This document shows, piece by piece, positions 14,780 to 46,999 of a stretch of DNA of 64,000 nt (its first letter is position 1; each line of letters starts with the position of its first letter). Below the pieces are notes generated by a model, which had not been told where the DNA came from, did not search any database, and worked only from the letters and a program-made list of their open reading frames with translations. Source of the stretch: Candidatus Aminicenantes bacterium (GTDB taxonomy: Bacteria; Acidobacteriota; Aminicenantia; Aminicenantales; Aminicenantaceae); contig WVZL01000016.1 in NCBI GenBank assembly GCA_011772495.1, forward strand, positions 228,499 through 292,498, read 5' to 3'. Position numbers and translations under genes: made by a program.

Positions 14780-16123
14780 ATGACCAAATTCATTTCCGCT
14801 GCCCTTGTCCTTTTTCTGCTCCTGTCGATCCCACTTCATCTCAAGGGTTCCAAGGTCTTTCCATATGATTACCAAATCGAGGAATTGGAAAACGGCCTGA
14901 GAGTTATCTCTATCCCCCTCGGCAACCCCAACATCATTTCTTACTACACCATCGTCCGTTCAGGCTCCAGAAACGAAGTCGAACCTGGGAAATCTGGGTT
15001 TGCTCACTTCTTCGAGCACATGATGTTCAAAGGCACCAAAAAGTTTCCTACTCAGGTCTACGAAGAAATCTTAACGGGATTGGGTGCAGGCACAAACGGC
15101 TATACCTCAGACGATTACACCTGCTATTACGTTGTTTTTGCCGGAAGAGAAAACCTGGAGAAAGTCGTAGAGCTCCAAGCTGACATATTCATCAATCTCT
15201 ACTACACCGAAGAAATGCTCAAAACAGAAGCCCCGGTTATAGAAGGAGAATACTACCGCAGCGTTTCCAATCCAGGCCGCAAGATTTACGAAATTTTGAG
15301 GGATACTGCTTTTGAAAAGCACTCTTACAAACACACTGTTATAGGCTATTTCGATGATATCCTGGATATGCCCAACCAGTTTGAATACAGCCAGCTCTAC
15401 AGAAAGCGCTTTTACGCTCCTGATAATACCATTGTTCTCGTGGCTGGAGATTATGACCACGATCAACTGATGGAGTATATCAAGAAATATTATGGCGACT
15501 GGGAAAAATCAGGGTACAAACTCGTGACTCCTGAAGAGCCCCCTCAAAAGAAAGCCAAAAGAGCTCACTTCGATTGGCCCACGAAAACACTTCCTCGCTT
15601 GGCTATCGGCTTTCATGGGCCTGCTTACTCTGAAGAGAAAATGGATAAAGCTGCTCTCAACCTTCTGGCTGAAATCGCCTTTTCCCGCTCATCTCCTCTT
15701 TATCAAAAATTGGTCATCGAGGAACAAAAATGCCTCAGCCTGTATGCCAGCTTTGGGGACCGCCGCGATCCCTACCTCTTGACCTTCAATTCCATAATCA
15801 AAAAGGACGAAGACCTTCCCTATGTGGAGAAGGCAATATCCCAGGAGCTGGAAAGGCTCAAGAAAGAACCTGTCGCCGAAGAAGTCCTGACTGATGTGAA
15901 ATCCAACCTGAAATATTCCTTTGCCAATTCTATGGGAACCACTGATGGAGTGGCCAGCTCCCTGGCTTTTTATATCAATTTGGCAGCTGACCCAGAAACT
16001 GTGAACAGACTCTTCGCCCTGTATGAAAAGGTAACCCCCGAGGACATTCAAGACATGGCAAAAAAATACTTCAAAAAGACAAACAGCACGGTGGTCACCC
16101 TAGCAGGAGGAAAATCAAAATGA
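14780..16123 (+). CDS. M16 (pitrilysin/insulinase) family zinc peptidase, catalytic subunit, secreted
   Basis: It has a signal peptide and the inverted zinc motif HFFEH in GFAHFFEHMMFKGT. A strong SD (AAAGGAGGA) precedes it. Confidence 0.85.
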   Translation: MTKFISAALVLFLLLSIPLHLKGSKVFPYDYQIEELENGLRVISIPLGNPNIISYYTIVRSGSRNEVEPGKSGFAHFFEHMMFKGTKKFPTQVYEEILTGLGAGTNGYTSDDYTCYYVVFAGRENLEKVVELQADIFINLYYTEEMLKTEAPVIEGEYYRSVSNPGRKIYEILRDTAFEKHSYKHTVIGYFDDILDMPNQFEYSQLYRKRFYAPDNTIVLVAGDYDHDQLMEYIKKYYGDWEKSGYKLVTPEEPPQKKAKRAHFDWPTKTLPRLAIGFHGPAYSEEKMDKAALNLLAEIAFSRSSPLYQKLVIEEQKCLSLYASFGDRRDPYLLTFNSIIKKDEDLPYVEKAISQELERLKKEPVAEEVLTDVKSNLKYSFANSMGTTDGVASSLAFYINLAADPETVNRLFALYEKVTPEDIQDMAKKYFKKTNSTVVTLAGGKSK

Positions 16124-17655
16124 GAAAGAGAAAAAATTTTCTGTTCGGAATCTTTTTTCTGGGTTTATCATTTTTTTTGTTTTCATGCGCTAAAGTCGAC
16201 CCCAACACACTTTCTTCTGAACTCCTCCTCCTTGAGGGAAACCCTCTGGTCAGCTTCAGAATTTTGCTCAAGGTTGGCTCAGCCCATGACCCGGCTGGGA
16301 AAGAGGGCCTCTGCCAGCTGGCCTTCACTATGCTCGCCAGCGGCGGTAGCCAGAGCCTGACGTTTAAGGAAATATCAAAGAAATTATATCCGATGGCTGC
16401 TCGAGTAGGACTAAGAGTGGACAAAGAGATGTCCGTTTTTACCGGGCAGGTTCACACCGACAATCTGGAAAAATACTACGCTATCCTGAAAGACATGCTC
16501 CTCAATCCCGGCTTCAGGGAAGATGATTTCAAGAGGATTAAAACCAACCATCTCAACTTCTTGCAAAAGACCTTAGTCGGGAGCAACGATGAACAGTTCG
16601 GAAAAGAAATCCTGAACCTGCTGATGTACGAAGGGCATCCCTACGGCCATCACGAAGCAGGAACGGTAGAAGCACTGGAAAGCATAACTTTGGATGAGAT
16701 AAAGGCCTTTTACAAAGAGCATTTCCTCCAGGGCAATATCACCATCGGTCTGGCCGGCGGGTATCCTGCTGATTTCCCGGACAAGGTCAGGGAAGATTTC
16801 TCCGCGGTGCCAGAAGGATTAACTGCTCCTTTAGCGCTGCTTGAACAGCGCAGTTCTGAAGGGCTTGAAATTGTCATAGCTGACAAAAAGACACCGGCGA
16901 CGGCTTTCTCCATGGGGTTTCCAGTGCCCATTTCCAGGGCTGATGAAGATTTCTTTGCTTTATGGATTGCCGGCTCTCACTTCGGAGAACACAGGCAGAG
17001 CGTTTCCCACCTCTTTCAAAAAATCCGCGAAGAGAGAGGACAGAATTACGGCGATTATGCTTACATCGAACATTTTATCCAGGGAAGGCGTAAGTTTCCG
17101 GCCACCAACTACTGCCGGCAACAGCAGTACTTCTCTATCTGGATTCGTCCTCTAGCCAATTCCAACCGCCACTTTGTCCTCCGCCAGACATTAAGAGAGC
17201 TCAAAAAGCTGGTCGAAGAAGGCATCTCCAGGGAAAGGTTTGAACTGGTGCGAACCTACCTCCTGAACTACACCAAACTCTACACTCAGACTCTTGGCGA
17301 GAGGCTCGGCTGGCAGATGGATTCTCACTACTACGGCTACCAAGATTTCTTGGAAGAAGTGCAGAGGAGGCTGCCCAAGATTAAACACGAAGACGTCAAC
17401 CGGGCCATCAAAAAATATCTGAACTTCAACAATATCTACATTGCCATTATCACCGAGGATGCAGAAGCCTTGAAAGAGGCCATGGTAGCCAACACACCAT
17501 CACCGATTACCTATGCCAATCCCAACATGCCCCAGGAAATACTCGAAGAAGACCTCGTCATCCAGAGTTTTCCTCTCGATATAAAGCCGGAAAAGGTTAA
17601 AATCGCAACCAACACAGAATTTTTCCAGAAAACAGGACTTCCCCAGATTGATTAG
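16120..17655 (+). CDS. M16 family peptidase-like protein, non-catalytic partner subunit
   Basis: Its architecture is M16-like but it has no HxxEH motif. It carries a lipoprotein-like signal (FFLFSCAK). It overlaps the upstream M16 gene by 4 nt (ATGA). Confidence 0.75.
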   Translation: MRKRKNFLFGIFFLGLSFFLFSCAKVDPNTLSSELLLLEGNPLVSFRILLKVGSAHDPAGKEGLCQLAFTMLASGGSQSLTFKEISKKLYPMAARVGLRVDKEMSVFTGQVHTDNLEKYYAILKDMLLNPGFREDDFKRIKTNHLNFLQKTLVGSNDEQFGKEILNLLMYEGHPYGHHEAGTVEALESITLDEIKAFYKEHFLQGNITIGLAGGYPADFPDKVREDFSAVPEGLTAPLALLEQRSSEGLEIVIADKKTPATAFSMGFPVPISRADEDFFALWIAGSHFGEHRQSVSHLFQKIREERGQNYGDYAYIEHFIQGRRKFPATNYCRQQQYFSIWIRPLANSNRHFVLRQTLRELKKLVEEGISRERFELVRTYLLNYTKLYTQTLGERLGWQMDSHYYGYQDFLEEVQRRLPKIKHEDVNRAIKKYLNFNNIYIAIITEDAEALKEAMVANTPSPITYANPNMPQEILEEDLVIQSFPLDIKPEKVKIATNTEFFQKTGLPQID

Positions 17656-17660
17656 AGATT

Positions 17661-18842
17661 TTATCCCAGAACTTTAAAAAAACGAGAAAAAACCTCATTA
17701 GCTCGGCGCAGATAATGGATCAGCTTTACTTCTGAGAGCGGAATATAGTTTCTCTGGGCAATGAATTGACGGGGAGCGAAAAATGTCCTTCCCACAAATT
17801 TCAGCTTAGCGAATACCCCCCGGTTCATCGAAAGGTGGACGAAATAACTCAATCCAGGAAGACGCCGATTTCTTGAGATGGCGTTCATAAAAATTTTCTC
17901 GCCCACACTGAAATGCTTAGGCCTCAACTCCGATAGAACATCTTCAGGGATTTGGGTTCCCAAAAATTTAGAGCTGAAATAGAGGCTCAAATAGACCATT
18001 TTATCCAGATTAAATTCGTAAGTCTCGTATATCAGGCGGCTCCAATCCAATCGTCCCTGATAATAATTCACAGCCTCATTGATGTCGCACAAAAGGCTTA
18101 ATTTACTCAAAGAATGGGTCACCCGGAGAGCATGTTCTGAAAGGTGGATGAGCAGGTGGTGGGGCGCCATGACCAATGTTTCTACGCCTGCAATCTCAGT
18201 ATTTTCTGCATCCCTCCAAACATTTTCCATTTTAATATTTCTAATGTATGATTCATTGGGAATCGTGGAGTTGACAAAATGCCAGTGGATATGAAAAGAG
18301 GGCGAATTCTCTTCTCTGCTTCGATAATCGAGGGTGGTCAAATAGGTCGAGGAAAAATCAACTTCATCCACTCCGGCATCCACTGGCCCATAACCTAATG
18401 TTTTAAGCCGCTCATCTGCGTGGGCCATGTCTTCTTCTTTCACCAGCAGGTCTACATCTGACATGGGCCTCAAAGCTATGTTTTCATATACTTCCTCTGC
18501 TAAGGCCGCGCCTTTTAGGACTATGACTTCGGGTCCTGAATTCTTGAATGCTTCTAGGACCTTTCCCAACTCCTTAAAAATAAGGGTATTCTTGGTGGCA
18601 TTCAGATAATAATCCTCTTCGAATCCTTCAAAAATATCACCTGGAATGCTCGGATAGTCCTGCATGATTTCATTTAATCTTGAATAGAGTAAGGCTGAAA
18701 CCCCATTTTCTCTCGCCTTCTCCAGGAAGATTCCCCAATCTAACCTATTCTTCACTGCTTCAATGATTTTGCGCTCAACCAACTCTTCTTTTTCTCTTCG
18801 ACAGCAGTAAAGCAGCAATCGATCTTCTTGTGTCCAGCTCAA
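17661..18842 (-). CDS. NTP_transf_5-type (uncharacterised) nucleotidyltransferase family protein
   Basis: VLKGAALAEEVYENIALRPMSDVDLLVKEEDMAHADERLKTLGY matches the hallmark block of the PF14907-type family. It is the last gene of the RiPP-like operon. Confidence 0.7.
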   Translation of the reverse strand: MSWTQEDRLLLYCCRREKEELVERKIIEAVKNRLDWGIFLEKARENGVSALLYSRLNEIMQDYPSIPGDIFEGFEEDYYLNATKNTLIFKELGKVLEAFKNSGPEVIVLKGAALAEEVYENIALRPMSDVDLLVKEEDMAHADERLKTLGYGPVDAGVDEVDFSSTYLTTLDYRSREENSPSFHIHWHFVNSTIPNESYIRNIKMENVWRDAENTEIAGVETLVMAPHHLLIHLSEHALRVTHSLSKLSLLCDINEAVNYYQGRLDWSRLIYETYEFNLDKMVYLSLYFSSKFLGTQIPEDVLSELRPKHFSVGEKIFMNAISRNRRLPGLSYFVHLSMNRGVFAKLKFVGRTFFAPRQFIAQRNYIPLSEVKLIHYLRRANEVFSRFFKVLG

Positions 18843-18933
18843 TTATTTACTCCTCTGAGAACTTTCCTTTCCAAAAGGAGAATTGAAAATGAATCAAGAC
18901 AAGCCCGAGAAAAATATTCTCTATTACACGAAT

Positions 18934-19950
18934 TTATCCTGATTTAATATTCTTAGCCAGGATTTTTTGGCGGCGTAGAGTCGTTCTGGCTTCTTGAATA
19001 AGATGTTTTTCCAGTTCAGGAATCGAGATTTGGCGAAATCCAGACTTTTGATACAATCCTTGGGCAGGTTTAGCATCTTCAAAAACGAGAAGCTTAATTT
19101 CTGAAGCACCGTGTTGGGCTGCTAACTCTGTAGCCATCTTTGTCAATTTCTCAGCGATTCCCATTCTTCGATAACGCCAATTCACCTTCATAACAAAGAT
19201 CCACCAGCCTGCGTAGGGAAAATTGCTTTCTGGAAATTTTGTGAGGTTTACACCTGCGATAACCTTATCTTTCCGTTTGGCTACAAGCCAAAATTCAGTA
19301 ACTCCGGATTTTCCTCCCTTCTTAAAAGAGCCATCCGTAATATCCTTCAACTCTGGTTCCTGATTGTACCTGTAAAGTCGGGAAAGCGCCTGAGCATCTT
19401 CGGGAACTGCGATTTGAAAACGGATTTTTTCTTTCCTTAATCTTTTGACTAAAGTGCTATAGATTTTAAGGCTCTGTATCTTCTCTGTAAGGCCACCCAA
19501 TAGTTTCCTTCCCTTGGACTTGACGACACTCCCGGCCGGATAAATCCACCGGTTGAAGGGAGCAATTCCCACAAAGAACAGACCTATTATATGATAGAGC
19601 TTGGTATCTATTCTTCTTATCCGCCCCTTCCTTTCGATGGCGACAACCTTGCCTAAAGCTTTTTGAATATCCACCCTTTCTGGGGGGCCAAAAGCGGCAT
19701 CTCCTTTAATGAGCAGGGTCATTCCCCCTTCTTTTTTTTGTTTTCCCATAACCCGGTGCACTATGACCTTGTTTTCGTCTGCCAAGTAGAATACCACCTC
19801 ACCTGTTTTAACAGAGGAGCTTTCAACTGGACTGACTGTTATAAAATCTCCATCCTGAATAAAGGGACGCATACTCCAGCCTTTGGCTTGAAAACGAACG
19901 GATTTTCGTTTTTTAAAGATATCTTTGGTTAATTCTAATAAGACTTCCAT
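18934..19950 (-). CDS. S24/S26-type serine peptidase fused to a GNAT N-acetyltransferase
   Basis: The N-terminal half has GWSMRPFIQDGD (Ser nucleophile motif), VHRV and LIKGDA (Lys general base region). A hydrophobic segment (IIGLFFVGIAPF) follows. The C-terminal half has GNAT motif A (WRYRRMGIAEKL...AQGLYQKSGF). Confidence 0.7.
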   Translation of the reverse strand: MEVLLELTKDIFKKRKSVRFQAKGWSMRPFIQDGDFITVSPVESSSVKTGEVVFYLADENKVIVHRVMGKQKKEGGMTLLIKGDAAFGPPERVDIQKALGKVVAIERKGRIRRIDTKLYHIIGLFFVGIAPFNRWIYPAGSVVKSKGRKLLGGLTEKIQSLKIYSTLVKRLRKEKIRFQIAVPEDAQALSRLYRYNQEPELKDITDGSFKKGGKSGVTEFWLVAKRKDKVIAGVNLTKFPESNFPYAGWWIFVMKVNWRYRRMGIAEKLTKMATELAAQHGASEIKLLVFEDAKPAQGLYQKSGFRQISIPELEKHLIQEARTTLRRQKILAKNIKSG

Positions 19951-19962
19951 ATTATCAATCTT

Positions 19963-21888
19963 CTAGATATTGCTGACAAAATCAACAGCGCTTTTATCAG
20001 CCTTGAAGCCTAATTCATAGCAAGGAATCTCGCGTGCTAACTCATCAATAAATTCAAGGGCAGATTCTATTCCCTTCTTATCCCAGAAAGTAAGAAAGGA
20101 ACAGACAATTAAACGGGAGGCAGCCTTTATTGGTTCGATCTTTCTCACACTATTCTTCTTGGCCTTCTTGAGAAAGAAAATCTTTCTTAAAGGCGCCTTT
20201 TCTGGTGAACACACCTTAATGTCCCCATGCCAAGGAGTTCCGTACATCCAAAATCGGCCCTTTACCTGACGAAGAATTATCCTGTCATCGCTGAGGATTT
20301 TGGTTCCTTCTTCATCTTTTCTCAAGCTGGCGATAGTGCTCTTTCCAGCGCCAGAGCTCCCGACAAAAAGTATCCCTTCTCCGTTATCATTAATACCGTA
20401 GCTATGAACGAGAAGACCTCCTCTTTGAGAGAGAAGGTTCATTATCAAGATCTCTCCTAAAGGATAGCCAAAAAAGTTTTCTAATCGCAGCTCTTTTGAC
20501 GCAGAGTAGAAGTCAACTTTCTTAAAATGACGATCAGAAACCATTACTGTCTCCAGTTTGTTCTGATCGCAAGAATAAGCAGTTTTGTTCCTACTCACTT
20601 GATAAAGCTTCCACGGGCCTTCGGAATCGAAGACCTTTCTTTTTTGCTTAAAATTAGGCCTGGAATCAGAATGAACCTCTATATCTATATCTGACCTTCT
20701 GGAACTAATGAATGATGAATAGGGATGATTGACCTGAATGGATTTATGAGAGGAAAAAGCCAAAGTCATATCACCGATAGTCAATTTTCCCTTTCCCTTT
20801 TGGAATTCCAGCTCTTTTTCCCATCCATACCTTTCCTTGGAAAAAGCTTTCAGCTTAGGTAAGGTACGAATATTCTTGTGGATTTGAATCTCTATCTGGC
20901 TGCTCAAAGGATACAGTCTTTCCTTTTTCAAGTCATTCAAGGAAGGAACCGGCCATCTCTGGAAAGGGTAATAATGGGTTAAAGAGAAGCGCCCCTCAAC
21001 ATCTTTATCTAAGCTGTATTCAAACAGGTTGTCTGGCTCAGAAATCTTTAAGTTTATCCAAGAGCCGGGTTGTTTTATGCCCTTATCTTGAATATAAACT
21101 ACAGCCTTGGGTCTTAACATTCTCTTTATCTGGGCCGTCGGGTCTAGGCGAAAGGGCATAAAGGAACTGACTGCAAGATCAATACTTCCTTGATGATTCG
21201 AGAGAAAAGAATCTGCATTATCTTTCAATAGGATTAAATTTTTATGCCTGAACTTTGTTCTTTCTATCAATCTCTCGTTGGGATCTATCCCGATAACCTT
21301 GACCCTCTCTGTCCTGGCTAAAAGATAGGCTAAGAATCCCTGTCCACAGCCGACATCCAAGATGGTCGGCACTCCTTTTCCCGAGTGCAGAAACTGAGCC
21401 AATCTGACAATCTTATCGATATCCATGCTCCTCGGTATCCACCAGGTTAAAGGTTTAGATTCGTCCCTAAAATCATCCAGGGAAATACTGGAAAAATCCT
21501 TGGTGTTCATATCGAAGAGCTCTTGATAGGACGAGGGAATTAGACCTGTACATCTGTTCCCTTCTTGGAAGATACAGGAATCACAATCAGGAAAGGAAGT
21601 GAATCTCTTTATCTTCTCATAATCTTTCCATCCTGGAAGGCAAAAGGGGAAGTCAGCATCTATACCTATCTTCATCATCTTGAGTCGGGATATGAAGTCT
21701 CTTAAGACCCTCCTGTTTTCCAAGGTCAGGTTAGACGGAGACCAGCTAATCTCCAGCTTAATCTTCTTGGGTTTTAAGAGTTCAAAGTCTGAGATGATTC
21801 TGGAGAGGGCTCCGGAAAGAAACCCGGAGGAATGAAAACGAAGAGAAATGTTTACTTCAAATATATTTTTTTTTAATATATCCTTCAA
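19963..21888 (-). CDS. Three-part protein: N-terminal Cys-rich region, class I SAM methyltransferase, C-terminal HPr kinase-like P-loop domain
   Basis: The N-terminal region (aa ~80-115) reads FPFCLPGW...PDCDSCIFQEGNRCTG. The methyltransferase motif I is ILDVGCGQGFLAYLLA...VIGIDPN. The C-terminal part reads GILFVGSSGAGKSTIA...ILSDDRI...GTPWHGD, like the HprK C-terminal domain. It uses a TTG start 31 nt after the stop of the small peptide gene. Confidence 0.65.
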   Translation of the reverse strand: MKDILKKNIFEVNISLRFHSSGFLSGALSRIISDFELLKPKKIKLEISWSPSNLTLENRRVLRDFISRLKMMKIGIDADFPFCLPGWKDYEKIKRFTSFPDCDSCIFQEGNRCTGLIPSSYQELFDMNTKDFSSISLDDFRDESKPLTWWIPRSMDIDKIVRLAQFLHSGKGVPTILDVGCGQGFLAYLLARTERVKVIGIDPNERLIERTKFRHKNLILLKDNADSFLSNHQGSIDLAVSSFMPFRLDPTAQIKRMLRPKAVVYIQDKGIKQPGSWINLKISEPDNLFEYSLDKDVEGRFSLTHYYPFQRWPVPSLNDLKKERLYPLSSQIEIQIHKNIRTLPKLKAFSKERYGWEKELEFQKGKGKLTIGDMTLAFSSHKSIQVNHPYSSFISSRRSDIDIEVHSDSRPNFKQKRKVFDSEGPWKLYQVSRNKTAYSCDQNKLETVMVSDRHFKKVDFYSASKELRLENFFGYPLGEILIMNLLSQRGGLLVHSYGINDNGEGILFVGSSGAGKSTIASLRKDEEGTKILSDDRIILRQVKGRFWMYGTPWHGDIKVCSPEKAPLRKIFFLKKAKKNSVRKIEPIKAASRLIVCSFLTFWDKKGIESALEFIDELAREIPCYELGFKADKSAVDFVSNI

Positions 21889-21919
21889 TCTGAGAAACCT
21901 TCTTAAGTATTCTCATCTA

Positions 21920-22078
21920 TTAACTTCCCGCAGCTGAACACTTGGTCCCATGGTATTTGCAGTCGACTGGCGGACCCACCCCACTCGCTCCTTCCATTTT
22001 ACAGCCGGAAAGAACCGCCTCCTGGGCTTTAAGTTTTACTGCTTTGATGTTAGGTTTGGAATACTTTTTCTTCTTCAT
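21920..22078 (-). CDS. Candidate RiPP precursor peptide, 52 aa: MKKKKYSKPNIKAVKLKAQEAVLSGCKMEGASGVGPPVDCKYHGTKCSAAGS
   Basis: I translated this by hand from the minus strand. It is missing from the ORF track, which lists nothing under 60 aa. AAGGAGGTG (22094-22086) lies 7 nt upstream of the ATG at 22078. The ORF overlaps the last 29 nt of the rSAM/SPASM gene in another frame. It has a Lys-rich leader with Y6-x-x-P9-x-I11, three Cys (26, 40, 47) and a C-terminal Ser. Confidence 0.6.
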   Translation of the reverse strand: MKKKKYSKPNIKAVKLKAQEAVLSGCKMEGASGVGPPVDCKYHGTKCSAAGS

Positions 22079-23183
22079 CTTTTTTCACCTCCTTATTTAT
22101 CCATTTCCCTAATTTATATCGCTTCTCTAATTCTCCAATTCTCAAATGAGTGACTTCACAGAGATATTCTGATGGAGTTTCGAAATCGCCGCCTTCTAGA
22201 TAAGACCAGCCAGGGCATTGGTTGCAGAAAGTAAAGAGTTCACAGCTCTGGCATCTATAATCCCCTTTCACTTTCTGGCTCCTCATTTCTGAGAATGTCT
22301 TCTGCCAACCCTCCCTAAAGCGTCCCTCCCGAAGGTTATAATAGGGGATTCTGGTAATAATGCAGAGGTGGAGGTTTCCAAAAGGATCGACTCTGAAGGT
22401 GTTCAAACCTGCCCTACAGGTAAAGACTCTATCAGAATCCGGTGGACCCCAGTATTTCTCGCAAAGCTCCTTGTAGCTGGGAAGCCTCCTCTCATCGGCA
22501 ATATCTAGATCTACCACTTCCCTGGGAGTAACTCTCAACTGGCAAGGTTCTTGGGAACCATCCAGCCTCGGATTAATCAAGCAATCGTGCCTGAACTCAA
22601 AGCCAAGCTGTTCTGCATATTCTTTAATCTGAAGGACTTCGGATATATTATCTTTAGTCACCAAGGTCTTCAATTTCAGCGGGAGATTCCTCTCTTTGCT
22701 CAGTTCCACTGCCTTAAAGACTCTCTCAAAAGAACCGCTAACTTCCCCGGTTACCTTTTCATAGGTCCCCTTTGTTATTCCGTATAAAGGGATTTCAACA
22801 GAAAAAGGACGCCATTCGGCTAAGAAATCTGCCATCTCTTCATCAAGCAAGACACCATTGGTGAAGAGAAAGATGAGCAATCCTTGCCTTTTAGCATAGA
22901 GATAGAGATCTTTAAAATCCTCTCTGATCAATGGCTCGCCGCCAGTGAAGCAGAGCCAGAAACATCCCTCTTTAGTTACTTCATCGATTATTCGATGGAT
23001 TTCTTCTGTAGAGAGTTCTTGGGCATGAGGGCCTTCTGTACAGTAACAGTGCTTACACTTAAGATTACATCTCCAGGTTATCTCTAACGAACCCAGCAAA
23101 GGTATGCGTTTATTAATGCCTTTCTCATGGAGTTTCTGGCTGAATTCGCCATAACTGATTTCTTGGATACAGGAAGAGCTCAT
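22050..23183 (-). CDS. Radical SAM / SPASM-domain peptide-modifying enzyme
   Basis: It has WRCNLKCKHCY (CxxxCxxC) and FTGGEPL. The SPASM Cys pattern is CRAGLNTFRVDPFGNLHLC ... CQSCELFTFCNQCPGW ... YLCEV. It starts directly after the PqqD stop. Confidence 0.9.
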   Translation of the reverse strand: MSSSCIQEISYGEFSQKLHEKGINKRIPLLGSLEITWRCNLKCKHCYCTEGPHAQELSTEEIHRIIDEVTKEGCFWLCFTGGEPLIREDFKDLYLYAKRQGLLIFLFTNGVLLDEEMADFLAEWRPFSVEIPLYGITKGTYEKVTGEVSGSFERVFKAVELSKERNLPLKLKTLVTKDNISEVLQIKEYAEQLGFEFRHDCLINPRLDGSQEPCQLRVTPREVVDLDIADERRLPSYKELCEKYWGPPDSDRVFTCRAGLNTFRVDPFGNLHLCIITRIPYYNLREGRFREGWQKTFSEMRSQKVKGDYRCQSCELFTFCNQCPGWSYLEGGDFETPSEYLCEVTHLRIGELEKRYKLGKWINKEVKKDEEEKVFQT

Positions 23184-23474
23184 CTATTTTCTCTCGATTA
23201 TCTCCCCTTTCTCTAACTTGGAGAGGAATTCTTTGACATCCTTTTCAGCTTGTTCAACAGTGACTTCGAACTCTTGGTAAATCCTCATTTGGATATCGCC
23301 GACACTTCTCTTGCCGTCAATGAGTTCCCAGATCCGGGCGGCGACCTCGTTCAGGGTGTAGATATTTTCCAGGTCGCCGACATTTTTCTTTATGGGAACT
23401 AAAACGTACTCATCAGCTATCTTTCTCGATACAATAGAATCACTTTTTTTATACACTTTATCGAGAAAATCCAT
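23184..23474 (-). CDS. PqqD-family peptide chaperone (RiPP recognition element)
   Basis: It is 96 aa and reads VSRKIADEYVLVP....IYTLNEVAARIWELIDGKRSVGDIQMRIYQEFEV..EQAEKDVKEFLSKLEKGEII, a typical PqqD/RRE sequence. AAGGAGGG lies 11 nt upstream of the ATG. Confidence 0.85.
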   Translation of the reverse strand: MDFLDKVYKKSDSIVSRKIADEYVLVPIKKNVGDLENIYTLNEVAARIWELIDGKRSVGDIQMRIYQEFEVTVEQAEKDVKEFLSKLEKGEIIERK

Positions 23475-23737
23475 CCTGACTTACGCCCTCCTTAGAAGCC
23501 TATTTCTGTATATAATATATAGAAAATGTGGGAAAAAGTAAACTCAGAGTGGGCCCCCCAAAAGTCTCGAGGCAAGAATACAAGATTTGTTATCTCTTGT
23601 AACTTATTGATTTTAAATGAGAAATACAAGGATTCTACGCTGGTCTCGATATTCATGATGACTTCATAACCTCTTTTAAAAATCATTTGACATTCTAAAA
23701 AGGAAGCCCTATGATTACGGCAAAGGAGGAAGGGAAT

Positions 23738-23932
23738 ATGATGAACAAAATCGTTGATGTATTCATTATACTGGCTGGTATTAGCCTAATTGTCGGAGTT
23801 ATATCCCGTCTTCTTTTAAAACCTTTTCCCTTCGGATTAGAAGCTCAAGCTTATCTTCAATTTGCCCATGGGATGCTATTATTTGCCATCGCTCTAGGAA
23901 TAAGGGAGCTACTAAAAACCAAAGGAAAATAA
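23738..23932 (+). CDS. Small two-TM membrane protein, hypothetical
   Basis: It begins MMNKIVDVFIILAGISLIVGVISRLLL...AHGMLLFAIALGI. AAAGGAGGAAGGG lies upstream of the MMNK start. It is transcribed divergently from the RiPP-like operon. Confidence 0.4.
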   Translation: MMNKIVDVFIILAGISLIVGVISRLLLKPFPFGLEAQAYLQFAHGMLLFAIALGIRELLKTKGK

Positions 23933-24063
23933 ACATACTCGGTTAGAAAAAGCTTGTTCTGTAAAGCTGCCTGAAATGAGGGCGCACGTCCTCATCCATT
24001 TATTCTCAGTAATAATTTCACAGAATCTTCAGCTGCCCAGAGATTACTGGTTTCAATGCTTGA

Positions 24064-25545
24064 TTACGGTGAACTTCTTTTTGCCTGGCTCTGAAACTTC
24101 ACAAATATCGGATTAGAAATTAATCTTCTTCCTTTCCTATCTCTTATATCCAGACGATAGTATATCTTCCTGCCGGGCTCAAAATATTCATCTTCAAAAT
24201 AGATGCTCAAAGGAGTTTCCCCTGTAAATGTATGGATTAATTGACCACTTCGGATCAATCTAATGCTTAGAGAATTCCCTTTTTCTAAACCAATAGTGGA
24301 AATATGAATTGTTATTATTGGGTATCTTTTCAAAGATATTTCTTCCCCCATGATTCCTTTCTGAGTGGAATCAGATGAGGAAATAGAAAAATGTTCAAGA
24401 ACAAGTCTTGGCAAGTCGACATTTCCTGCATAAGCATAAATTCTTCCTTTCTTTATTGCATTTAGAATATCCGTTTTTGTTCTGTTCTTTACCAGAAAAA
24501 TAGTTGGATATCTTCCCAATCTTGCCCCAGCAGCGCCTTCTTCATGAAATTCAGCGGTAGAAACTCCCCAGGCAGGCCTTACCCTCTGACCCAAGCAGTA
24601 TTCCAATAATACTCTATCCCAAATATCACCTGGCTCTGTCACCGTTATTCTTTCTCCATACAGCGCTGAAAAACCCGTATAATTTTTGGATTCTAATAAC
24701 ACCTGAGGATAAGGAGGTGTATCTCTAGATATTGGGCCTAATTGCCCTCGACCCGATCTTGTTTCAGGATGGTTCCAGAAGATCATCCCTCCTCTAGAAT
24801 TGACATAATCGATCAACAATTGGTACGGCGAAATTCCCTGATCGCCATGGTACTGGTTATAGGGAGAGCTTCTGAAAGGATGATTATTAACGAAAAGAAG
24901 CAATGTCAAAACAAGAATAAATATTCCAGAATATCTGACCAATCGCTTTCCTTTTAACATGTATAGAGCAAGTAAAAGGGGAATAAGCAAGAAAAAATAA
25001 GTCGCAGGAATGGAGGGAAGAATATACCTGGTGGAAAAACCATTATGAAGGATGGGCAATTCCATATAAACTCTTGGCTCTTCAAGGCCTACTATTAAGA
25101 GATGCCTTTCCCAATCACGCACAGTCAGGTTTCCACTCAAGTAGCTTCCTTTCCAGTAATAAAAAGGAGCCGACTCTGCTCCGGGAATCAATATCATGTC
25201 CGGATATTTTTTTTGGTTTGATTCAATCGCAGATAAGTAATTTTCTGATCCTCTTTCATTGATCGAAGGCTCTTCGACTCTTCTTTTCAAAATATTCTGA
25301 AAAGGACGAATTCCGTATTCGAGGACTTTCCGGTCATGGTCATTGATGAAAAGCACCTGAAATCCTCTCTTTTGGGCCAGCTTAAGGAGATATTCAATCG
25401 AGTGTGCTCCATCACTAAAATCACTACGGAGGCCGATGAGACCTGGTATTTGTATGAAGTCATCTTCAAGCGGGAAACTCTGGATAGACATCCCAAGGCT
25501 GAATATAATAGAAATTAAAATTATCTTATGAGTGCGACTTCTCAT
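24064..25545 (-). CDS. PHP-like domain protein with a signal peptide and central TM segments
   Basis: It contains SDGAHSIEYLLKLAQKRGFQVLFINDHD, which resembles the PHP phosphoesterase N-terminal block. The usual HxH before SDG reads LRSDF here. The central segment is hydrophobic (YFFLLIPLLLALYML...ILVLTLLLF). Confidence 0.5.
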   Translation of the reverse strand: MRSRTHKIILISIIFSLGMSIQSFPLEDDFIQIPGLIGLRSDFSDGAHSIEYLLKLAQKRGFQVLFINDHDRKVLEYGIRPFQNILKRRVEEPSINERGSENYLSAIESNQKKYPDMILIPGAESAPFYYWKGSYLSGNLTVRDWERHLLIVGLEEPRVYMELPILHNGFSTRYILPSIPATYFFLLIPLLLALYMLKGKRLVRYSGIFILVLTLLLFVNNHPFRSSPYNQYHGDQGISPYQLLIDYVNSRGGMIFWNHPETRSGRGQLGPISRDTPPYPQVLLESKNYTGFSALYGERITVTEPGDIWDRVLLEYCLGQRVRPAWGVSTAEFHEEGAAGARLGRYPTIFLVKNRTKTDILNAIKKGRIYAYAGNVDLPRLVLEHFSISSSDSTQKGIMGEEISLKRYPIITIHISTIGLEKGNSLSIRLIRSGQLIHTFTGETPLSIYFEDEYFEPGRKIYYRLDIRDRKGRRLISNPIFVKFQSQAKRSSP

Positions 25546-25907
25546 TCAAAATTGACAAAAGATATTAAAACTCTAAAATTACCATAATGAATCGATACTG
25601 GAATATAGACTTTCAGAAAGTATTTCAACACTCAATTATCTAAAAAATATAATAAAATTGAAAGTTATCTTTCATCCTCCTTTAGATTTTAGAAAGGGCT
25701 ATAAAATCAATATCCTGTAACTCTAATTTTATCAATAAGATAAATATAGTTTCTGTATTAATGAATCGAAAATCCACCCGAGAATGAGGAGAAAGAAAAC
25801 AACAAGACATTTTGACTATTAATTTGACATGTTCAGTATGTTTAGATATAGTTCTTCTAAATAAGCAGTTATGACCAAAAAGACAGAATGATTTAATCCA
25901 TAAAAGA

Positions 25908-26714
25908 GTGATGTATGAAAAATATTGGGATCTGAACGAGAAGCCCTTCGAAAACACGCCTGATCCACGCTTTATTTATTTCTCCCATGAGCATCTAGAG
26001 GCTATCAGCAGATTGACTTATGCCGTCGAGGAACGCAAAGGAGCAGCTTTACTGACCGGTGATTACGGCTGTGGAAAAACAGTCATGAGCAGGCTGCTCT
26101 TTGAGCGATTGCCCTCGGACAGACATGAAATAGGGCTGGTCACCAATCCTATATTAAGCCCGATCGCTCTATTGCGAGAAATCTGCTTTCAACTGGGCAT
26201 GAAAAATACGAAAGGATCCAACAAATCACAATTGCTGGCCAACCTCAACGAGCACCTCTACGAAAATCTGAACAACAACCAAGAAACGGTCATCATCATT
26301 GATGAGGCCCAAACTATAAAAAATCCTCTGGCTTTCGAAGAATTGAGACTGTTACTAAACTTTCAGTTAAATCAAAGATTTCTGATGACTCTTATCCTCA
26401 TTGGACAGCCAGAATTACGAGAAACCATAGACAAACTAAAACAGCTAAAACAAAGACTAGCCGTAAGGTATCATCTCAATCCTTTGAATAAGAAAGAAAC
26501 CGGAAAGTATATCATCCATAGACTGGAAATCGGGGGACTTAAAAGAAAAATCTTTACCGACAATAGTGTAAATTTAATTTGGGAAGGGTCTGGAGGAATT
26601 CCGCGAATGATAAACACAATATGTGACATGTGCCTACTGGTGGGTTACAATAATAGACTCCAAAAAATCAACGAGGTGGTTGTGAAAGATGTCATCCGAG
26701 ATTTAGGAGAATGA
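25908..26714 (+). CDS. ExeA/GspA/MshM-like AAA+ ATPase
   Basis: It starts YWDLNEKPFENTPDPRFIYFSHEHLEA. Walker A is GDYGCGKT, Walker B is IIIDEAQ, and LILIGQPEL is present. This layout is typical of ExeA-family proteins. Confidence 0.8.
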   Translation: MMYEKYWDLNEKPFENTPDPRFIYFSHEHLEAISRLTYAVEERKGAALLTGDYGCGKTVMSRLLFERLPSDRHEIGLVTNPILSPIALLREICFQLGMKNTKGSNKSQLLANLNEHLYENLNNNQETVIIIDEAQTIKNPLAFEELRLLLNFQLNQRFLMTLILIGQPELRETIDKLKQLKQRLAVRYHLNPLNKKETGKYIIHRLEIGGLKRKIFTDNSVNLIWEGSGGIPRMINTICDMCLLVGYNNRLQKINEVVVKDVIRDLGE

Positions 26715-26720
26715 TAGAAC

Positions 26721-27719
26721 ATGGTTAAAATATCTGAAATCATCAGAAAACCTGAAAGAGAAAGACCCAAACGCAAGCCAGGCATAATTTCAGAAGTCAT
26801 AAAAATCAAAAAAGAAGAAGAAAGTTTCCCAGGAATAAAAAAAATATACGAAGAGGCAATTCATAAATTAAAAAGACTCATGAATGATATTAAAGATGGA
26901 AAAAATGTTGAGGGGAAAAATGTCGCTGCCCTGGCTGAAAAAATAATAGAAAGTCTTAGGATTAATAAAAATATCCTAATATCCTTTGTGAATAATTCTG
27001 CTCTGCATGAAAGCAATGAAGATTATCTCTACCAGCATTCTCTAAACGCCTCTATCTTGGCCACTAACCTCGGCTCAGCTCGTGGTTACTCTAAAGACAA
27101 ACTCCTGGATCTATGTGGTTCGACTTTACTGCATGATATTGGCATCCTCAAAGTGCCCCGAGAAATCATAACCAAGCCCTCAATATTAACCAAAGAGGAA
27201 AACGACCAGATTAAAAAGCATCCAGCCCATGGCTTGGAACTCTTGGAGAACATAAAGAATCCTCCTGAATCCGCAGCCGCGGTCATCTATGAACATCATG
27301 AAAGAATAGACGGAACAGGCTATCCAGAAGGGAAAACAGGAGAGGAAATTTCCGAGTATGCCAAGATCGTGGCTATCGTTGAGGTTTACGAGGCCATCAC
27401 CCATCCCCGTCCCTATCACCGAAATATCCCCTATGAGGGCGCAAGAATGATTGTCCAGGAGGCTAAGAGCTCCTTCGAGCCTGAATTCGTTAAACTCTTT
27501 TTGAATTACATCACTCCTTATCCCCCTGGAAGCCTGATATTATTGAACAATGATGAAGTTGGTCGGGTTGTCCATATCAACGAAGGGCTTCCTCTGCGCC
27601 CTATCGTGGAAATAATTTATGATTCAGAGGGCAGGCCCGCTGAGAAACCGAAGCGGATCGACTTATCCAAGTCTCCTGTCTTAAACATCAAGAGAGCTGT
27701 AGACGAGAGCAGTCTGTAA
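26721..27719 (+). CDS. HD-GYP domain c-di-GMP phosphodiesterase-like protein
   Basis: It contains LLHDIGILKVP (HD) and YEHHERIDGTGYPEG (GYP). It starts 6 nt downstream of the exeA-like gene. Confidence 0.85.
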   Translation: MVKISEIIRKPERERPKRKPGIISEVIKIKKEEESFPGIKKIYEEAIHKLKRLMNDIKDGKNVEGKNVAALAEKIIESLRINKNILISFVNNSALHESNEDYLYQHSLNASILATNLGSARGYSKDKLLDLCGSTLLHDIGILKVPREIITKPSILTKEENDQIKKHPAHGLELLENIKNPPESAAAVIYEHHERIDGTGYPEGKTGEEISEYAKIVAIVEVYEAITHPRPYHRNIPYEGARMIVQEAKSSFEPEFVKLFLNYITPYPPGSLILLNNDEVGRVVHINEGLPLRPIVEIIYDSEGRPAEKPKRIDLSKSPVLNIKRAVDESSL

Positions 27720-27812: not shown

Positions 27813-28496
27813 ATGATTGTTTCCATCCATCAACCTCAGTACTTGCCCTGGTTAGGCTATTTCGATAAGATCGAGAGAAGTGATATTTTTATTTTCTTGG
27901 ATAATGTGCAGTTCAAAAAGAACGAATGGCAGAATCGGAACAAGATCAAAACAGACCAGCAATGGCAGTGGCTGACTGTTCCAGTAATTCACAAATTCGG
28001 CCAGAAAATCGGTGAAGTCGAAATCAATAATACTGTCCGTTGGGGAAGGAAACATCTGTCGGCCTTGACGACTCACTATTCTAAGGCTACCTATTTTGAA
28101 GAATATGCTGCTTTTTTTGAGCAAACTTATGCTCAGGAATGGAAATTGTTGACCGGTCTTAATATTCACCTCATTCAATATTTGGCCAAAGCCTTAGGTA
28201 TTTCGAATACAGAGTTTGTCATATCGTCAGAATATGAATCCAGGGAAGAACCCACTGAACGATTAGTCGATCTTTGCAAGCAGGCGCAAGGCAAAGTTTA
28301 CCTCTCTGGAAAAGATGGAGCAAAATATCTGAATCTTGACGCCTTTGAAAAAGAAGGCATCCAGGTCATTTTTCAAGAATATCATCATCCTCAATATCCT
28401 CAGCTCTACGGAAATTTTGAGCCATATATGTCGATCATAGATTTATTATTCAATTGTGGGCCGGAAAGCCTTTCCATCCTCAAGAAAGGAGAATAA
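27813..28496 (+). CDS. WbqC-family protein
   Basis: It begins MIVSIHQPQYLPWLGYFDKIERSDIFIFLDNVQF, the WbqC N-terminal signature. Confidence 0.75.
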   Translation: MIVSIHQPQYLPWLGYFDKIERSDIFIFLDNVQFKKNEWQNRNKIKTDQQWQWLTVPVIHKFGQKIGEVEINNTVRWGRKHLSALTTHYSKATYFEEYAAFFEQTYAQEWKLLTGLNIHLIQYLAKALGISNTEFVISSEYESREEPTERLVDLCKQAQGKVYLSGKDGAKYLNLDAFEKEGIQVIFQEYHHPQYPQLYGNFEPYMSIIDLLFNCGPESLSILKKGE

Positions 28497-28497
28497 A

Positions 28498-29112
28498 TTG
28501 AATATTTTAGCCCTAGGAGCCCATCCAGACGACATCGAATACGGGTGCGGAGGCACTTTTCTTAAATTTTCCAAAAAGGGAGTAAATATTTATTTTATGG
28601 TTCTCACCAAAGGAGAGTTTGGCGGCGATTCTAAAACTAGGGAGAAAGAACAAGAAGAGGCCCTGAAATTACTGAGAGTCAAGAAAATCTTTTGGGGAGG
28701 ATACACCGATACAGAGCTTCCCAATGAAAGAGTCATCATCACTCACATCGACAAAGTCATTGCCGAAGTCAATCCGGACGAAGTGTATGTCAACTACATC
28801 GAGGATATCCATCAGGACCACCGCACCTTGGCCGAGTGCACTCTGGCGGCCACGAGATATGTCAAAAGAGTCTTCTTTTATGAAGATTATACTTCCAGTA
28901 ATTTTGAGCCTGACATATTCGTCGACATCGAAGACGTGCTGGAAGAAAAGCAACAATTGATTCAATGCTATTCTTCTCAAGTGGCTAAAGCTTATCCGAC
29001 CAAACTGGATATGGTGGAAAGCATCAGAGCTGCAGCCAATTTCAGGGGATTCCAAGGCAAAGTCAAATATGCTGAGGGGTTTAAGGCCTTCAGATTCTTG
29101 CGCGACCTATGA
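28498..29112 (+). CDS. PIG-L/LmbE family deacetylase
   Basis: It contains LNILALGAHPDDIEYGCGGT (HPDD motif) and HQDHR. The TTG start at 28498 follows a GGAGA SD. The track ORF begins at 28456 inside the upstream gene. Confidence 0.8.
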   Translation: MNILALGAHPDDIEYGCGGTFLKFSKKGVNIYFMVLTKGEFGGDSKTREKEQEEALKLLRVKKIFWGGYTDTELPNERVIITHIDKVIAEVNPDEVYVNYIEDIHQDHRTLAECTLAATRYVKRVFFYEDYTSSNFEPDIFVDIEDVLEEKQQLIQCYSSQVAKAYPTKLDMVESIRAAANFRGFQGKVKYAEGFKAFRFLRDL

Positions 29113-30161: not shown

Positions 30162-30176
30162 TATAAGGTCTTAAAC

Positions 30177-31250: not shown

Positions 31251-31347
31251 ATAGAAAACTCTTCACTCAAAGAGACAAACAAAAAAAGAAGATCTTAGAG
31301 TGAGATGAGATTCCTATTCCAGACAAATAGCTGCTATTGCTCAAACC

Positions 31348-32499: not shown

Positions 32500-32803
32500 T
32501 GAAACGGCTATCGAATATGGTTTTTCAATCTTTAAAAGCATAGGCAGAGAAGTCTTATTAATTTCGAATATAAGGATATATAAGCGTAGGCATGTTTCGA
32601 GGCAAGTTTTATCTCATAATCGATTCTATGATCCACAACAATGTTCATATTTTCTCCGGTATAAAATAGGGCTAACTGGAAGCTTGAATGGATAAAAAAG
32701 AAGATAAGAAAATTAAGATGAGTTTGCTATTAGATTTGAATTGACTCGCTTCTACGCATTCTATTCTAACGCTACATGTATGAGTAAAATGATATTTCCT
32801 TTT

Positions 32804-34831: not shown

Positions 34832-34985
34832 AATGCTTCTTCCAATAGCTCCTGTTTGACAGAAAACGAATTACCAGCTATTGCGAGAAATTTCACTATA
34901 AAAAATACTAAGCTGTGCATGCACTTTCTAATTTTTATATCAAGGCTCTCGATTTTTAGATTACACTCAAATTCGTAATTGATCC

Positions 34986-35840: not shown

Positions 35841-35898
35841 TCGTTGTTACCTTCTCTGCAAATAATACAATAAGCAAAATTATCGGCCTGCTGATTCA

Positions 35899-37026: not shown

Positions 37027-37033
37027 GGATTAA

Positions 37034-37885: not shown

Positions 37886-37893
37886 AATGGATC

Positions 37894-39207: not shown

Positions 39208-39298
39208 CAGCAGAAATTATAAATTATTTAAGCCTCTTTATAGCTATCTTAATATTCAAGTATTTGCTTACTTTGCTCAATTCTATTAAGTACAACAT

Positions 39299-42421: not shown

Positions 42422-42560
42422 TTTGTCACTTTAGCCTTCTGAATGTATTCTCTAGAGTATCTAAAAGCCAGCCTTGATAGCCTTTTAATCATTTCCTGTT
42501 TCCTGGTTAAAGAGAAGAAAGATTTTCTGTATCTTTAGAAGTCTGACTATGTTTATCTTC

Positions 42561-43385: not shown

Positions 43386-43494
43386 ATAAGTTCCTTTTAA
43401 ACTTTTTCCTTTTTTCTGAGCGATAGTACTATTAAGATCTATCTATAAAAAGAATCAAAAGTGGCAATTAATATTGTTATTCTTGAATTCCACC

Positions 43495-44883: not shown

Positions 44884-45012
44884 CTTAATCCCTTTCTCTT
44901 GAAAAGACTATGAAGTTAGTTTTTTTTCTGGAAATGAATCGTGAACTTTTAAAATGGGAATCTGTTTTGATTCGATAGAATTTCAATGGACTGAGAAGAA
45001 ATGAGCCATGCC

Positions 45013-46983: not shown

Positions 46984-46999
46984 TTAATTCATCCTTTTA

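Follow-up and report, generated by a model that had tools for sequence, protein, structure and literature searches.

Gene organisation of the cassette

The window analysed here is a stretch of 64,000 nucleotides (nt) from Candidatus Aminicenantes bacterium (GenBank assembly GCA_011772495.1, contig WVZL01000016.1, positions 228,499 to 292,498 of the forward strand). The element in question is a small open reading frame (ORF) on the minus strand at 21920..22078, which comprises 52 codons and a stop and overlaps the 3′ end of a radical S-adenosylmethionine (rSAM) enzyme gene. Judged by its sequence and that of its relatives, this ORF very probably encodes the precursor ('A' peptide) of a radical-SAM RiPP (ribosomally synthesised peptide with post-translational modifications) that depends on a RiPP recognition element (RRE). 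The cassette in the window consists of six genes on the same strand, abutting or at most about 90 nt apart: a discrete PqqD-family RRE, the rSAM enzyme, the peptide, a kinase-like fusion protein, an S26 peptidase fusion protein, and an accessory nucleotidyltransferase.

The translation of the ORF, MKKKKYSKPNIKAVKLKAQEAVLSGCKMEGASGVGPPVDCKYHGTKCSAAGS, was obtained from the ORF list and from reading the minus strand, whose sequence over 21800..22200 includes AAGGAGGTGaaaaaagATGAAGAAG. A Shine-Dalgarno (SD) sequence, AAGGAGGTG, is located at 22086..22094 (minus strand), inside the coding tail of the rSAM gene, with a spacer of 7 nt to the ATG at 22076..22078. The rSAM ORF (22050..23183, minus strand) and the peptide ORF overlap out of frame by 29 nt. 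The coordinates, translation, SD spacing, and overlap had been given in an earlier note on this DNA, together with the positions of Y6, P9, I11, C26, C40, C47, and S52, and all of them are verified. The same note called the ORF unannotated, which is wrong, as GenBank lists an identical 'hypothetical protein GTO17_05805 [Candidatus Aminicenantes bacterium]' without functional annotation. The window peptide matches no Pfam or NCBIfam family, and eight diverse members of its family find no match in NCBIfam at E <= 10. Promoter and terminator scans gave nothing better than shuffled sequence.

Conservation and selection

In seven related loci (L001–L007) the rSAM proteins are 69–88% identical to that of the window, and an orthologous ORF of 51–55 amino acids (aa) overlaps the rSAM 3′ end. 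The overlap in close relatives is 26–32 nt, and the GGAGGTG site is retained (in L001, L004, L005, and L006). An alignment of 38 rSAM homologues (A1) was used to scan the GTDB species genomes. It succeeded where a scan of genome contigs with a single rSAM protein as query had found nothing. Relatives were confirmed for 583 of 600 matched stretches, so at least 583 rSAM loci exist across the GTDB species genomes, and 80 loci were fetched.

A hidden Markov model (HMM) of the peptide, built from five orthologues, was run on the six-frame translation of 87 related loci. It matches a small same-strand ORF directly 3′ of the rSAM gene in about 75 of the 80 genome loci, with E values of 1e-11 to 1e-2, while matches elsewhere in the loci are all worse than E = 0.1. 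The hosts belong to the Acidobacteriota, Omnitrophota, Deltaproteobacteria, Chloroflexota, Nitrospirota, Binatia, Verrucomicrobiota, and Planctomycetota. A small ORF conserved beside PqqD and rSAM genes across many phyla bears out the hallmark of a RiPP precursor that the earlier note had seen in the window peptide. A profile of 40 peptides collects 541 clusters at 90% identity. Those named in their source are all 'hypothetical protein', and none has a Pfam hit. A further profile (A3), compared with 1.84 billion representatives of clusters at 50% identity, retrieves 1,904 proteins at E <= 1e-3 and 266 at E <= 1e-10, nearly all of them 50–65 aa long and ending at the last position of the profile. 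With the window peptide as its founding member here, the family is large and unnamed.

The ratio of nonsynonymous to synonymous substitution rates (dN/dS) of the peptide among close relatives is 0.11–0.22. Two substitutions within the overlap, AAA to AAG (Lys) and CCT to CCC (Pro), are silent in the peptide frame, whereas read in the rSAM frame they replace Thr by Ala and abolish the stop. The last 25 or so residues of the rSAM protein (beyond about 350) are unaligned in distant homologues, and the last 18 or so form a clade-specific disordered tail that spans the ribosome-binding site and start codon of the peptide. Since these substitutions are silent in the peptide and the rSAM tail is unaligned and disordered, the peptide frame, and not the rSAM frame, is the constrained frame in the overlap. 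The earlier note had named selection on the rSAM frame alone as grounds for refutation, and this is not the pattern observed. The peptide ORF is a real gene under purifying selection.

Small size, overlap with a larger gene, and the lack of any Pfam or NCBIfam hit are the properties expected if the ORF were a chance frame or a by-product of the rSAM 3′ end or intergenic region, without a peptide product. This explanation has practically no probability and is effectively refuted by the conservation of the protein across phyla while the DNA diverges, by the dN/dS values, by the strong and correctly spaced SD retained in orthologues, and by the size of a family with such uniform length and end point. 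A conserved RNA or DNA element that gives the appearance of a gene is likewise countered by the pattern of synonymous substitutions.

Because the ribosome-binding site and start codon lie within the rSAM tail, translation of the peptide is probably coupled to that of the enzyme in the window's clade, as the arrangement of the two frames suggests. The overlap on which the earlier note had based such coupling is conserved in this clade. Family-wide, the peptide gene begins at a median of 17 nt past the rSAM stop, and the two genes overlap in about a quarter of the loci.

Signature of the peptide family

The predicted leader of the window peptide comprises residues 1–25 (22004..22078, minus strand), with a Lys-rich N-terminus, the sequence Y6-S-K-P9-N-I11, L16, and a terminal QEAVLSG. 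The codons of Y6-x-x-P9-x-I11, a putative RRE-binding motif, occupy 22046..22063 (minus strand). The predicted core comprises residues 26–52 (21923..22003, minus strand), and contains C26-K27, a variable stretch rich in Gly, Ser, Ala, and Pro, then C40, C47, and the C-terminal G51-S52. Both regions are delimited by conservation in the family. The alignments (A2 and A3) show a conserved leader followed by a variable core, encoded next to a modifying enzyme, as in RiPP precursors.

The pattern [YW]xxP-x16-C[KR] fits 330 of 338 unique pooled peptides, and the spacing from Tyr to the invariant Cys-Lys is exactly 20 residues in 68 of 69 peptides from the loci. Within these 330 members, the Pro of Y-x-x-P-x-[LIV] is 100% conserved, the first position is Tyr in 96% and Trp in 3%, and the last position is Leu, Ile, or Val in 94% (73, 11, and 10%, respectively). 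The leader further has Leu at +10 from the Tyr in 97% and Glu at +14 in 98%, and its family-wide pattern is K-[KR]-x-Y-E-K-P-x-L-x-x-I-x-L-x-x-E-E-V/A-L. A K/R-rich start and [YW]xxPx[LIV] are thus followed by 14 residues with EE(A/V)(V/L) at their end. The Cys-Lys that opens the core is present in 100%, exactly three Cys occur in 325 of 330 cores, and the C-terminus has Gly at the penultimate position in 90% and ends in Ser (96%) or Thr (3%). This C-terminal Ser is the sole conserved hydroxyl residue in the family. The core measures 21–33 aa from Cys-Lys to the end, is rich in Gly, Ser, Ala, Pro, and Thr, and is hypervariable between the Cys residues. The Cys spacing in the family is C-x12-15-C-x4-5-C-x5-end, with x13, x6, and x5 in the window peptide. 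The lasso-like leader motif and the three Cys as plausible donors, both of which the earlier note had proposed from a single peptide, are therefore features of the family. The C-terminal Ser, proposed there as a target of HprK-type kinases, is nearly invariant and remains a plausible target, since an HprK-like gene co-occurs in 77 of the 87 loci.

Some loci from Nitrospirae metagenome-assembled genomes (MAGs) have tandem precursor genes (L071:8094-8255 and 8292-8462; L066:5742-5888 and 5910-6074). The leaders of these peptides have WxKP in place of YxKP and an extra Cys, and the copy at L066:5742 is without the third core Cys. The peptide of an Omnitrophica relative (L006/L007) reads CKYRG where the window peptide reads CKYHG.

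Radical SAM enzyme and PqqD protein

The PqqD-family protein is a discrete RRE of 96 aa (23184..23474, minus strand; PF05402 at 3.3e-19), with weak NCBIfam matches to PqqD and to lasso PqqD chaperones. Its gene immediately precedes that of the rSAM enzyme in 80 of 87 loci. Discrete RREs bind lasso leaders with the motif [Y/W]xxPx[L/V/I/A/F/Y] and present them to partner enzymes, and a similar motif has been noted in PQQ leaders (PMC13381572).

The rSAM protein is a radical SAM/SPASM peptide maturase of 377 aa (22050..23183, minus strand; PF04055 at 2.5e-24). The 38 homologues conserve the CX3CX2C motif (C39, C43, and C46) and a seven-Cys SPASM pattern consisting of C256-x12-G-x4-C274, C311-x2-C314-x5-C320-x2-C323, and C342. 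Its AlphaFold2 (AF2) model has a predicted local distance difference test (pLDDT) score of 81.5, with residues 360–377 below 50. Foldseek matches of this model are SkfB, CteB, SuiB, anSME (TMq 0.67, the highest), PqqE, TigE, EpeE, and ChlB. The top matches in the PDB by sequence and fold are SkfB and CteB, both of which form thioethers. Since these two are the nearest solved relatives, thioethers are the most likely modification. That the enzyme makes Cys thioether cross-links is nevertheless a tentative assignment from sequence and fold likeness, quite possible but short of probable. A second, unrelated radical SAM protein of 315 aa (10898..11845, plus strand; PF04055 at 2e-15) is encoded about 10 kb from the cassette.

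The same peptide could be a RiPP precursor whose rSAM enzyme forms no thioether, and acts instead on Lys27 or the C-terminal Gly-Ser as MftC does, or epimerises or cross-links through carbon–carbon (C–C) bonds, while the three Cys form a disulfide, bind metal, or serve another reaction. MftA of the mycofactocin system ends at an invariant C-terminus, and the peptide ORF likewise almost always ends exactly at Gly-Ser. The Lys after the first core Cys is fully conserved, the best full-length NCBIfam alignment of the rSAM protein is with MftC (residues 21–337, 122.8 bits), and the non-thioether enzymes SuiB, anSME, EpeE, and TigE are among the Foldseek neighbours. In contrast, the MftC score is far under the cutoff of 265 bits, and the hypervariable stretch between the Cys residues suits a cross-linked scaffold better than a cofactor. 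Three invariant Cys are also the most obvious handles for radical-SAM/SPASM chemistry in an enzyme with SkfB and CteB as top matches, and the co-occurring kinase already accounts for the conserved C-terminal Ser. A non-thioether enzyme is on this evidence rather unlikely.

Kinase-like fusion, S26 peptidase, and nucleotidyltransferase

Directly downstream of the peptide gene, a fusion protein of 641 aa (19963..21888, minus strand) comprises a Cys-rich N-terminal domain of unknown family (residues 1–150), a class I S-adenosylmethionine (SAM) methyltransferase domain (about 160–280), and a ScmC/HprK-like P-loop domain (about 370–641) with the motifs GSSGAGKST, LSDDR, and YGTPWHG. The P-loop domain matches HprK_rel_B (2.8e-9) and ScmC (3e-8) in NCBIfam, and the precomputed Pfam family PF27840 (ScmC) matches the orthologues of the window protein. 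ScmC-like proteins conserve H..G....G.G.LF.G.SGAGKST, LSDDR, and YGTPWHG, which include the Walker A and DD motifs. A profile of them (A4), compared with the PDB, matches HPr kinase/phosphorylase (2qmh and 1jb1 at 7e-5, 1ko7 at 7e-4) and also phosphoenolpyruvate carboxykinase, and the matches span the His, P-loop, and DD region. A phmmer search of the PDB with the 641-aa protein gave methyltransferases only. The Cys-rich domain (21439..21888, FCLPG...CDSCIFQEGNRC) has no Pfam hit and occurs only in the closest relatives L001–L005, where it is seen at truncated contig ends in L001–L003. It could be a metal- or Fe-S-binding module.

The next gene encodes a fusion protein of 338 aa (18934..19950, minus strand), in which a SipW/archaeal-type S26 Ser-His peptidase (residues 1 to about 110; PF00717) is followed by a C-terminal GNAT domain (PF00583). 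The peptidase contains the motifs GWSMRP, VHRV, and KGDA, and scores 56.3 bits in TIGR02228 (sigpep_I_arch), above the cutoff of 51.85. Its Ser and His boxes G-x-S-M-x-P, H-R, and G-D-a are conserved in 58 sequences. The accessory gene is an NTP_transf_5 'uncharacterised nucleotidyltransferase' of 393 aa (17661..18842, minus strand; PF14907 at 7.4e-46).

Co-occurrence was determined by tblastn of the window proteins against the 87 loci, several of which are on truncated contigs. The HprK/ScmC-like domain is found in 77 of them, the S26 peptidase in 58, and the GNAT domain in 7. The conserved gene order is PqqD, rSAM, peptide, ScmC-like protein, and S26 peptidase. The peptide gene is regularly accompanied by those for a discrete PqqD protein, one rSAM/SPASM enzyme, and an HprK/ScmC-like P-loop protein, and usually by that for a SipW-type S26 peptidase. 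The methyltransferase is fused only in the close relatives L004 and L005, and on the sequences compared both the methyltransferase and the GNAT fusions are specific to the window's clade. Clustering of the neighbour ORFs of 84 related loci gave no further conserved partner, in an analysis made noisy in high-GC loci by antisense shadow ORFs.

In L006/L007 (3461-4645), a separate PRMT/PrmA-like methyltransferase is located 3′ of a stand-alone ScmC-like gene, and a ParE/PhdYeFM toxin-antitoxin pair lies just upstream of the PqqD gene. Each locus has a single rSAM gene except L086 (Omnitrophota MAG161), the only fetched locus with four rSAM paralogues (1256-2290, 7001-7978, 8487-9410, and 12128-13111). 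A divergent peptide candidate upstream (6730-6924) has neither the CK nor the YxxP signature, and L086 may be a different multi-rSAM system of the SCM-like kind.

Relation to known systems

Linear polyphosphorylated peptides: Among described systems, the closest is that of the linear polyphosphorylated peptides (LPPs) of Bacillota, encoded by LppA/K/B/S/N/D (Popov et al., Nat Commun 2026; PMC13381572). In LPPs, a Ser of the core is phosphorylated by LppK, leader removal by the SipW-like LppS depends on the RRE, and the role of LppN is open (PMC13381572). Both systems share the logic of an RRE, a kinase, a signal peptidase I (SpI)-type peptidase, and an NTP transferase, both precursors have a YxxPx[V/L/I] leader motif, and both lie near polysaccharide loci. 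Neither the putative S26 leader peptidase nor this close likeness to LPPs figures in the earlier note. The core genes by which LPP clusters are recognised (SpI/SipW-like peptidase, discrete RRE, and HprK-like kinase) are all present here, with a kinase match that is weak yet consistent. In contrast, the text of the LPP paper contains no radical SAM, rSAM, or SPASM, whereas an rSAM/SPASM gene anchored every locus fetched here. The LPP precursor has YxxPxVLxHQxIxFETxxS and variable C-termini of 35–200 aa, while the present one has YxxP-x16-CK...C...C..GS and about 55 aa. After YxxPx[LIV] its leader continues as x-x-[IV]-x-L-x-x-E-E-[VA]-[LV]-x-x-x-C-K, with no conserved Ser near the junction. 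The LPP core set includes an MsbA-like exporter, whereas the window cluster has no ABC exporter and the related loci show no conserved one, and it includes an NTP transferase, which occurs here in 13 of 87 loci. LPPs are found in Bacillota, and the present family in Acidobacteriota, Aminicenantes, Omnitrophota, Deltaproteobacteria, and other phyla.

Phosphorylated lasso peptides: In lasso peptides, the C-terminal Ser is (poly)phosphorylated by the HprK-like kinases PsmK and PadeK, and hexose is attached to the phosphate by PsmN, a nucleotidyltransferase (PMC6993621). PsmN and LppN are described as uncharacterised nucleotidyl or NTP transferases (PMC6993621, PMC13381572). The present cassette resembles these systems in its HprK-family kinase together with a C-terminal Ser, its nucleotidyltransferase, its [Y/W]xxP leader, and its discrete RRE. 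The window peptide could on these grounds be taken for a lasso precursor, with a YxxPxI leader bound by a B1 protein, a lariat core, and a phosphorylated C-terminal Ser. The leader motif agrees with the lasso RRE motif, the PqqD protein weakly matches the NCBIfam lasso PqqD models (1.3e-11; 44.5 bits, with a cutoff of 80), and paeninodin-type lasso clusters include an HprK-like kinase and NTP_transf_5. No asparagine-synthetase-like cyclase or transglutaminase-like B2 protease is present, however, among the window ORFs of at least 200 aa or among the conserved neighbours of 84 related loci. The leader lacks the penultimate Thr, ending in EAVLSG with no conserved Thr, and the core has no conserved Asp or Glu positioned for ring closure. 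An rSAM/SPASM enzyme and an S26 peptidase replace the cyclase and the B2 protease, and a three-Cys core without lariat replaces the lasso. A lasso peptide is thus very improbable and is rejected on the lack of cyclase and B2 protease. The lasso analogy of the earlier note stands for leader recognition and Ser phosphorylation, and fails for the lasso peptide itself.

Sactipeptides and ranthipeptides: The cassette shares with these an rSAM enzyme that has the SPASM/twitch auxiliary-cluster domain and a leader-bearing precursor that contains Cys. SkfB and CteB are top matches of the enzyme, and it has weak NCBIfam hits to StsB and PapB. The scores are far from membership in these curated maturase families, with 63.6 against 340 bits for PapB and 86.2 against 625 bits for StsB. 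The RRE is here a separate PqqD protein, in contrast to the N-terminal fusion of sacti- and ranthipeptide enzymes, and a kinase and an S26 peptidase are obligatory partners.

SynChlorMet: The SynChlorMet (SCM) cassettes (ScmC/ScmD/ScmE/ScmF, NCBIfam TIGR04248–04251) likewise combine a PqqD homologue, rSAM/SPASM proteins, and an HprK-related ScmC-type protein. They have two rSAM proteins (ScmE and ScmF), whereas the present loci have one apart from L086. The present cassette is homologous to SynChlorMet and not a member of it, because all equivalog scores are far below their cutoffs (ScmC 33 against 125, ScmD 34.5 against 100, and ScmE 85.7 against 400). To our knowledge, the TIGRFAM description of SCM identifies no precursor. 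In contrast, the precursor family is explicit in the present cassette.

Mycofactocin: The MftA/B/C system resembles the cassette in its PqqD-like chaperone, rSAM/SPASM maturase, and short peptide with an invariant C-terminus. The rSAM protein scores below the MftC cutoff, as given above, and the peptide ends in GS and not in GVY. The hypervariable core and the other accessory enzymes further set the present cassette apart.

Proposed pathway

In the proposed pathway, the PqqD protein would bind the YxxPxI leader motif (Y6–I11) and present the peptide to the partner enzymes, by analogy with lasso and LPP systems. The SPASM enzyme would then modify the three-Cys core, most likely by thioethers of the sacti or ranthi type from C26, C40, and C47. 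Phosphorylation of the C-terminal Ser52 by the HprK-like domain, on the model of PadeK and PsmK with lasso peptides, is a step of moderate probability. NTP_transf_5 may extend or decorate the Ser52 phosphate in the manner of PsmN. The S26 peptidase probably removes the leader, by analogy with LppS in LPPs, and the cut is predicted around EAVLSG|CK, about 16–20 residues past the Tyr by the spacing of LppA and lasso leaders. In the window's clade, the peptidase is fused to a GNAT domain that may acetylate the N-terminus exposed by cleavage, and the methyltransferase joined to the kinase would add a methyl group. The pathway as a whole is considered likely from the gene content of the loci, with somewhat less assurance than the precursor assignment.

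Several observations weigh against this pathway. The HPr kinase likeness of the P-loop domain is weak, with a Pfam E value of 0.003 and NCBIfam scores of about 20–36 bits against cutoffs of 125–240, and the single-sequence AF2 model of the ScmC/HprK-like region has a pLDDT of 32. The LPP kinase targets core Ser3 just after the cleavage site, whereas the conserved hydroxyl is here the C-terminal Ser. The Pfam SPASM model (PF13186) does not score on the rSAM protein at E <= 0.01, the structural neighbours of this protein include enzymes for C–C cross-linking (SuiB), formylglycine formation (anSME), epimerisation (EpeE), and cyclopropanation (TigE), and its best full-length NCBIfam alignment is the sub-cutoff one with MftC. 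NTP_transf_5 occurs in only the 13 loci mentioned, and no exporter is conserved among the clustered neighbour ORFs of the 84 loci.

Flanking genes and the polysaccharide locus

A polysaccharide locus of the exopolysaccharide (EPS) or lipopolysaccharide (LPS) type, about 20 kb long (27813..48343), adjoins the RiPP cluster and encodes WbqC, PIG-L, a DegT aminotransferase, a WecA-like GT4 protein, two GT9 heptosyltransferases, two GT1 proteins, four SAM methyltransferases, a phosphodiesterase/sulfatase-like protein, a Wzx-like flippase, a Wzy_C ligase/polymerase, a Wzz/GNVR tyrosine-kinase-type protein, and a Wza-type Poly_export protein. Wza and Wzz genes also follow the cassette of L005. In a parallel to this, LPP and paeninodin clusters have been reported to lie within capsular polysaccharide loci (PMC13381572).

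These neighbours raise the alternative that the peptide is a carrier or primer and not a secreted product. Its C-terminal Ser would be phosphorylated and glycosylated and feed the adjacent polysaccharide pathway as a peptide-anchored glycopolymer, and the rSAM cross-links would merely rigidify it. The polysaccharide genes beside the cassettes of the window and L005, and those reported around LPP and paeninodin clusters, agree with this alternative, as do the placement of hexoses on phosphate by PsmN and the lack of a dedicated exporter conserved in the cassette. In contrast, polysaccharide genes are not conserved neighbours in the clustering of 84 loci, with the linkage checked in few loci, NTP_transf_5 occurs in a minority of loci, and the argument is one purely of gene neighbourhood. 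A carrier or primer role is improbable.

A second Aminicenantes genome has a region (L011:2700-11030) syntenic with 17661..27719 of the window. Identities are 54% for the HD protein, 65% for AAA, 66% for PHP, 62% for a 73-aa membrane protein, 70% for PqqD, 64% for S26, and 66% for NTP_transf_5. The rSAM protein (50%), kinase domain (47%), and peptide (about 39%) have diverged much further, and neither the methyltransferase nor the GNAT fusion is present. Inside a conserved locus, the enzyme-substrate core thus appears to have diversified or been swapped.

Directly upstream of PqqD, a 493-aa protein (24064..25545, minus strand) has a hydrophobic N-terminus and a PHP/CehA-McbA-type metallohydrolase domain, and is conserved only in L001, L002, and L011. 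A phosphoesterase beside a putative phosphopeptide pathway is suggestive, yet its distribution looks like lineage synteny. A pair of M16 (insulinase/PqqL-like) peptidase genes (14780..17655, plus strand) is convergent with the cassette end and is probably unrelated, because it is not conserved beside the cassette elsewhere. The PHP hydrolase, the AAA and HD pair, and the M16 pair were considered as parts of the system and rejected, as they are shared only with close Aminicenantes-type loci or not shared. Further along, the window contains a tandem pair of TonB-dependent receptor genes together with a TonB gene (52222..56278 and 59848..61083), as well as a UvrA-like ABC ATPase at 57110..59812.

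Significance of the peptide family

In the full-text literature, a search in which subscription-only literature was not covered, no publication was found to combine an HprK-like kinase and an rSAM RiPP, and broader queries gave general reviews only. The precursor family is modelled by neither Pfam nor NCBIfam and has no description in the searchable literature. Kinases and signal peptidases go unmentioned in the RRE-Finder and rSAM-compendium papers. The cassette of PqqD, one rSAM/SPASM enzyme, precursor, HprK/ScmC-like kinase, and SipW-type peptidase may tentatively be regarded as an undescribed RiPP class. Its product would be a peptide with an rSAM-cross-linked three-Cys core and a phosphorylated C-terminal Ser, possibly glycosylated, methylated, or acetylated in some lineages. 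Such a class might extend over Acidobacteriota, Aminicenantes, Omnitrophota, Deltaproteobacteria, and other mostly uncultured phyla. It could also supply the 'missing precursor' logic for ScmC-type cassettes, and tie the phospho-tailoring of LPPs and lasso peptides to radical-SAM chemistry. There is a fair chance of class status once the product is known.

With this analysis, what was a short 'hypothetical protein' turns into the substrate that defines a very common, uncharacterised biosynthetic cassette. Its signature, [YW]xxP-x16-CK...C...C..GS-COOH, is a precursor signature for genome mining. Radical-SAM core modification, HprK-type Ser phosphorylation, and S26-type leader removal form a testable combination that is new to the searchable literature, and which would connect LPPs and phosphorylated lasso peptides to rSAM RiPPs. 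The hosts are dominant phyla of soil, sediment, and groundwater, whose secondary metabolism is almost unknown.

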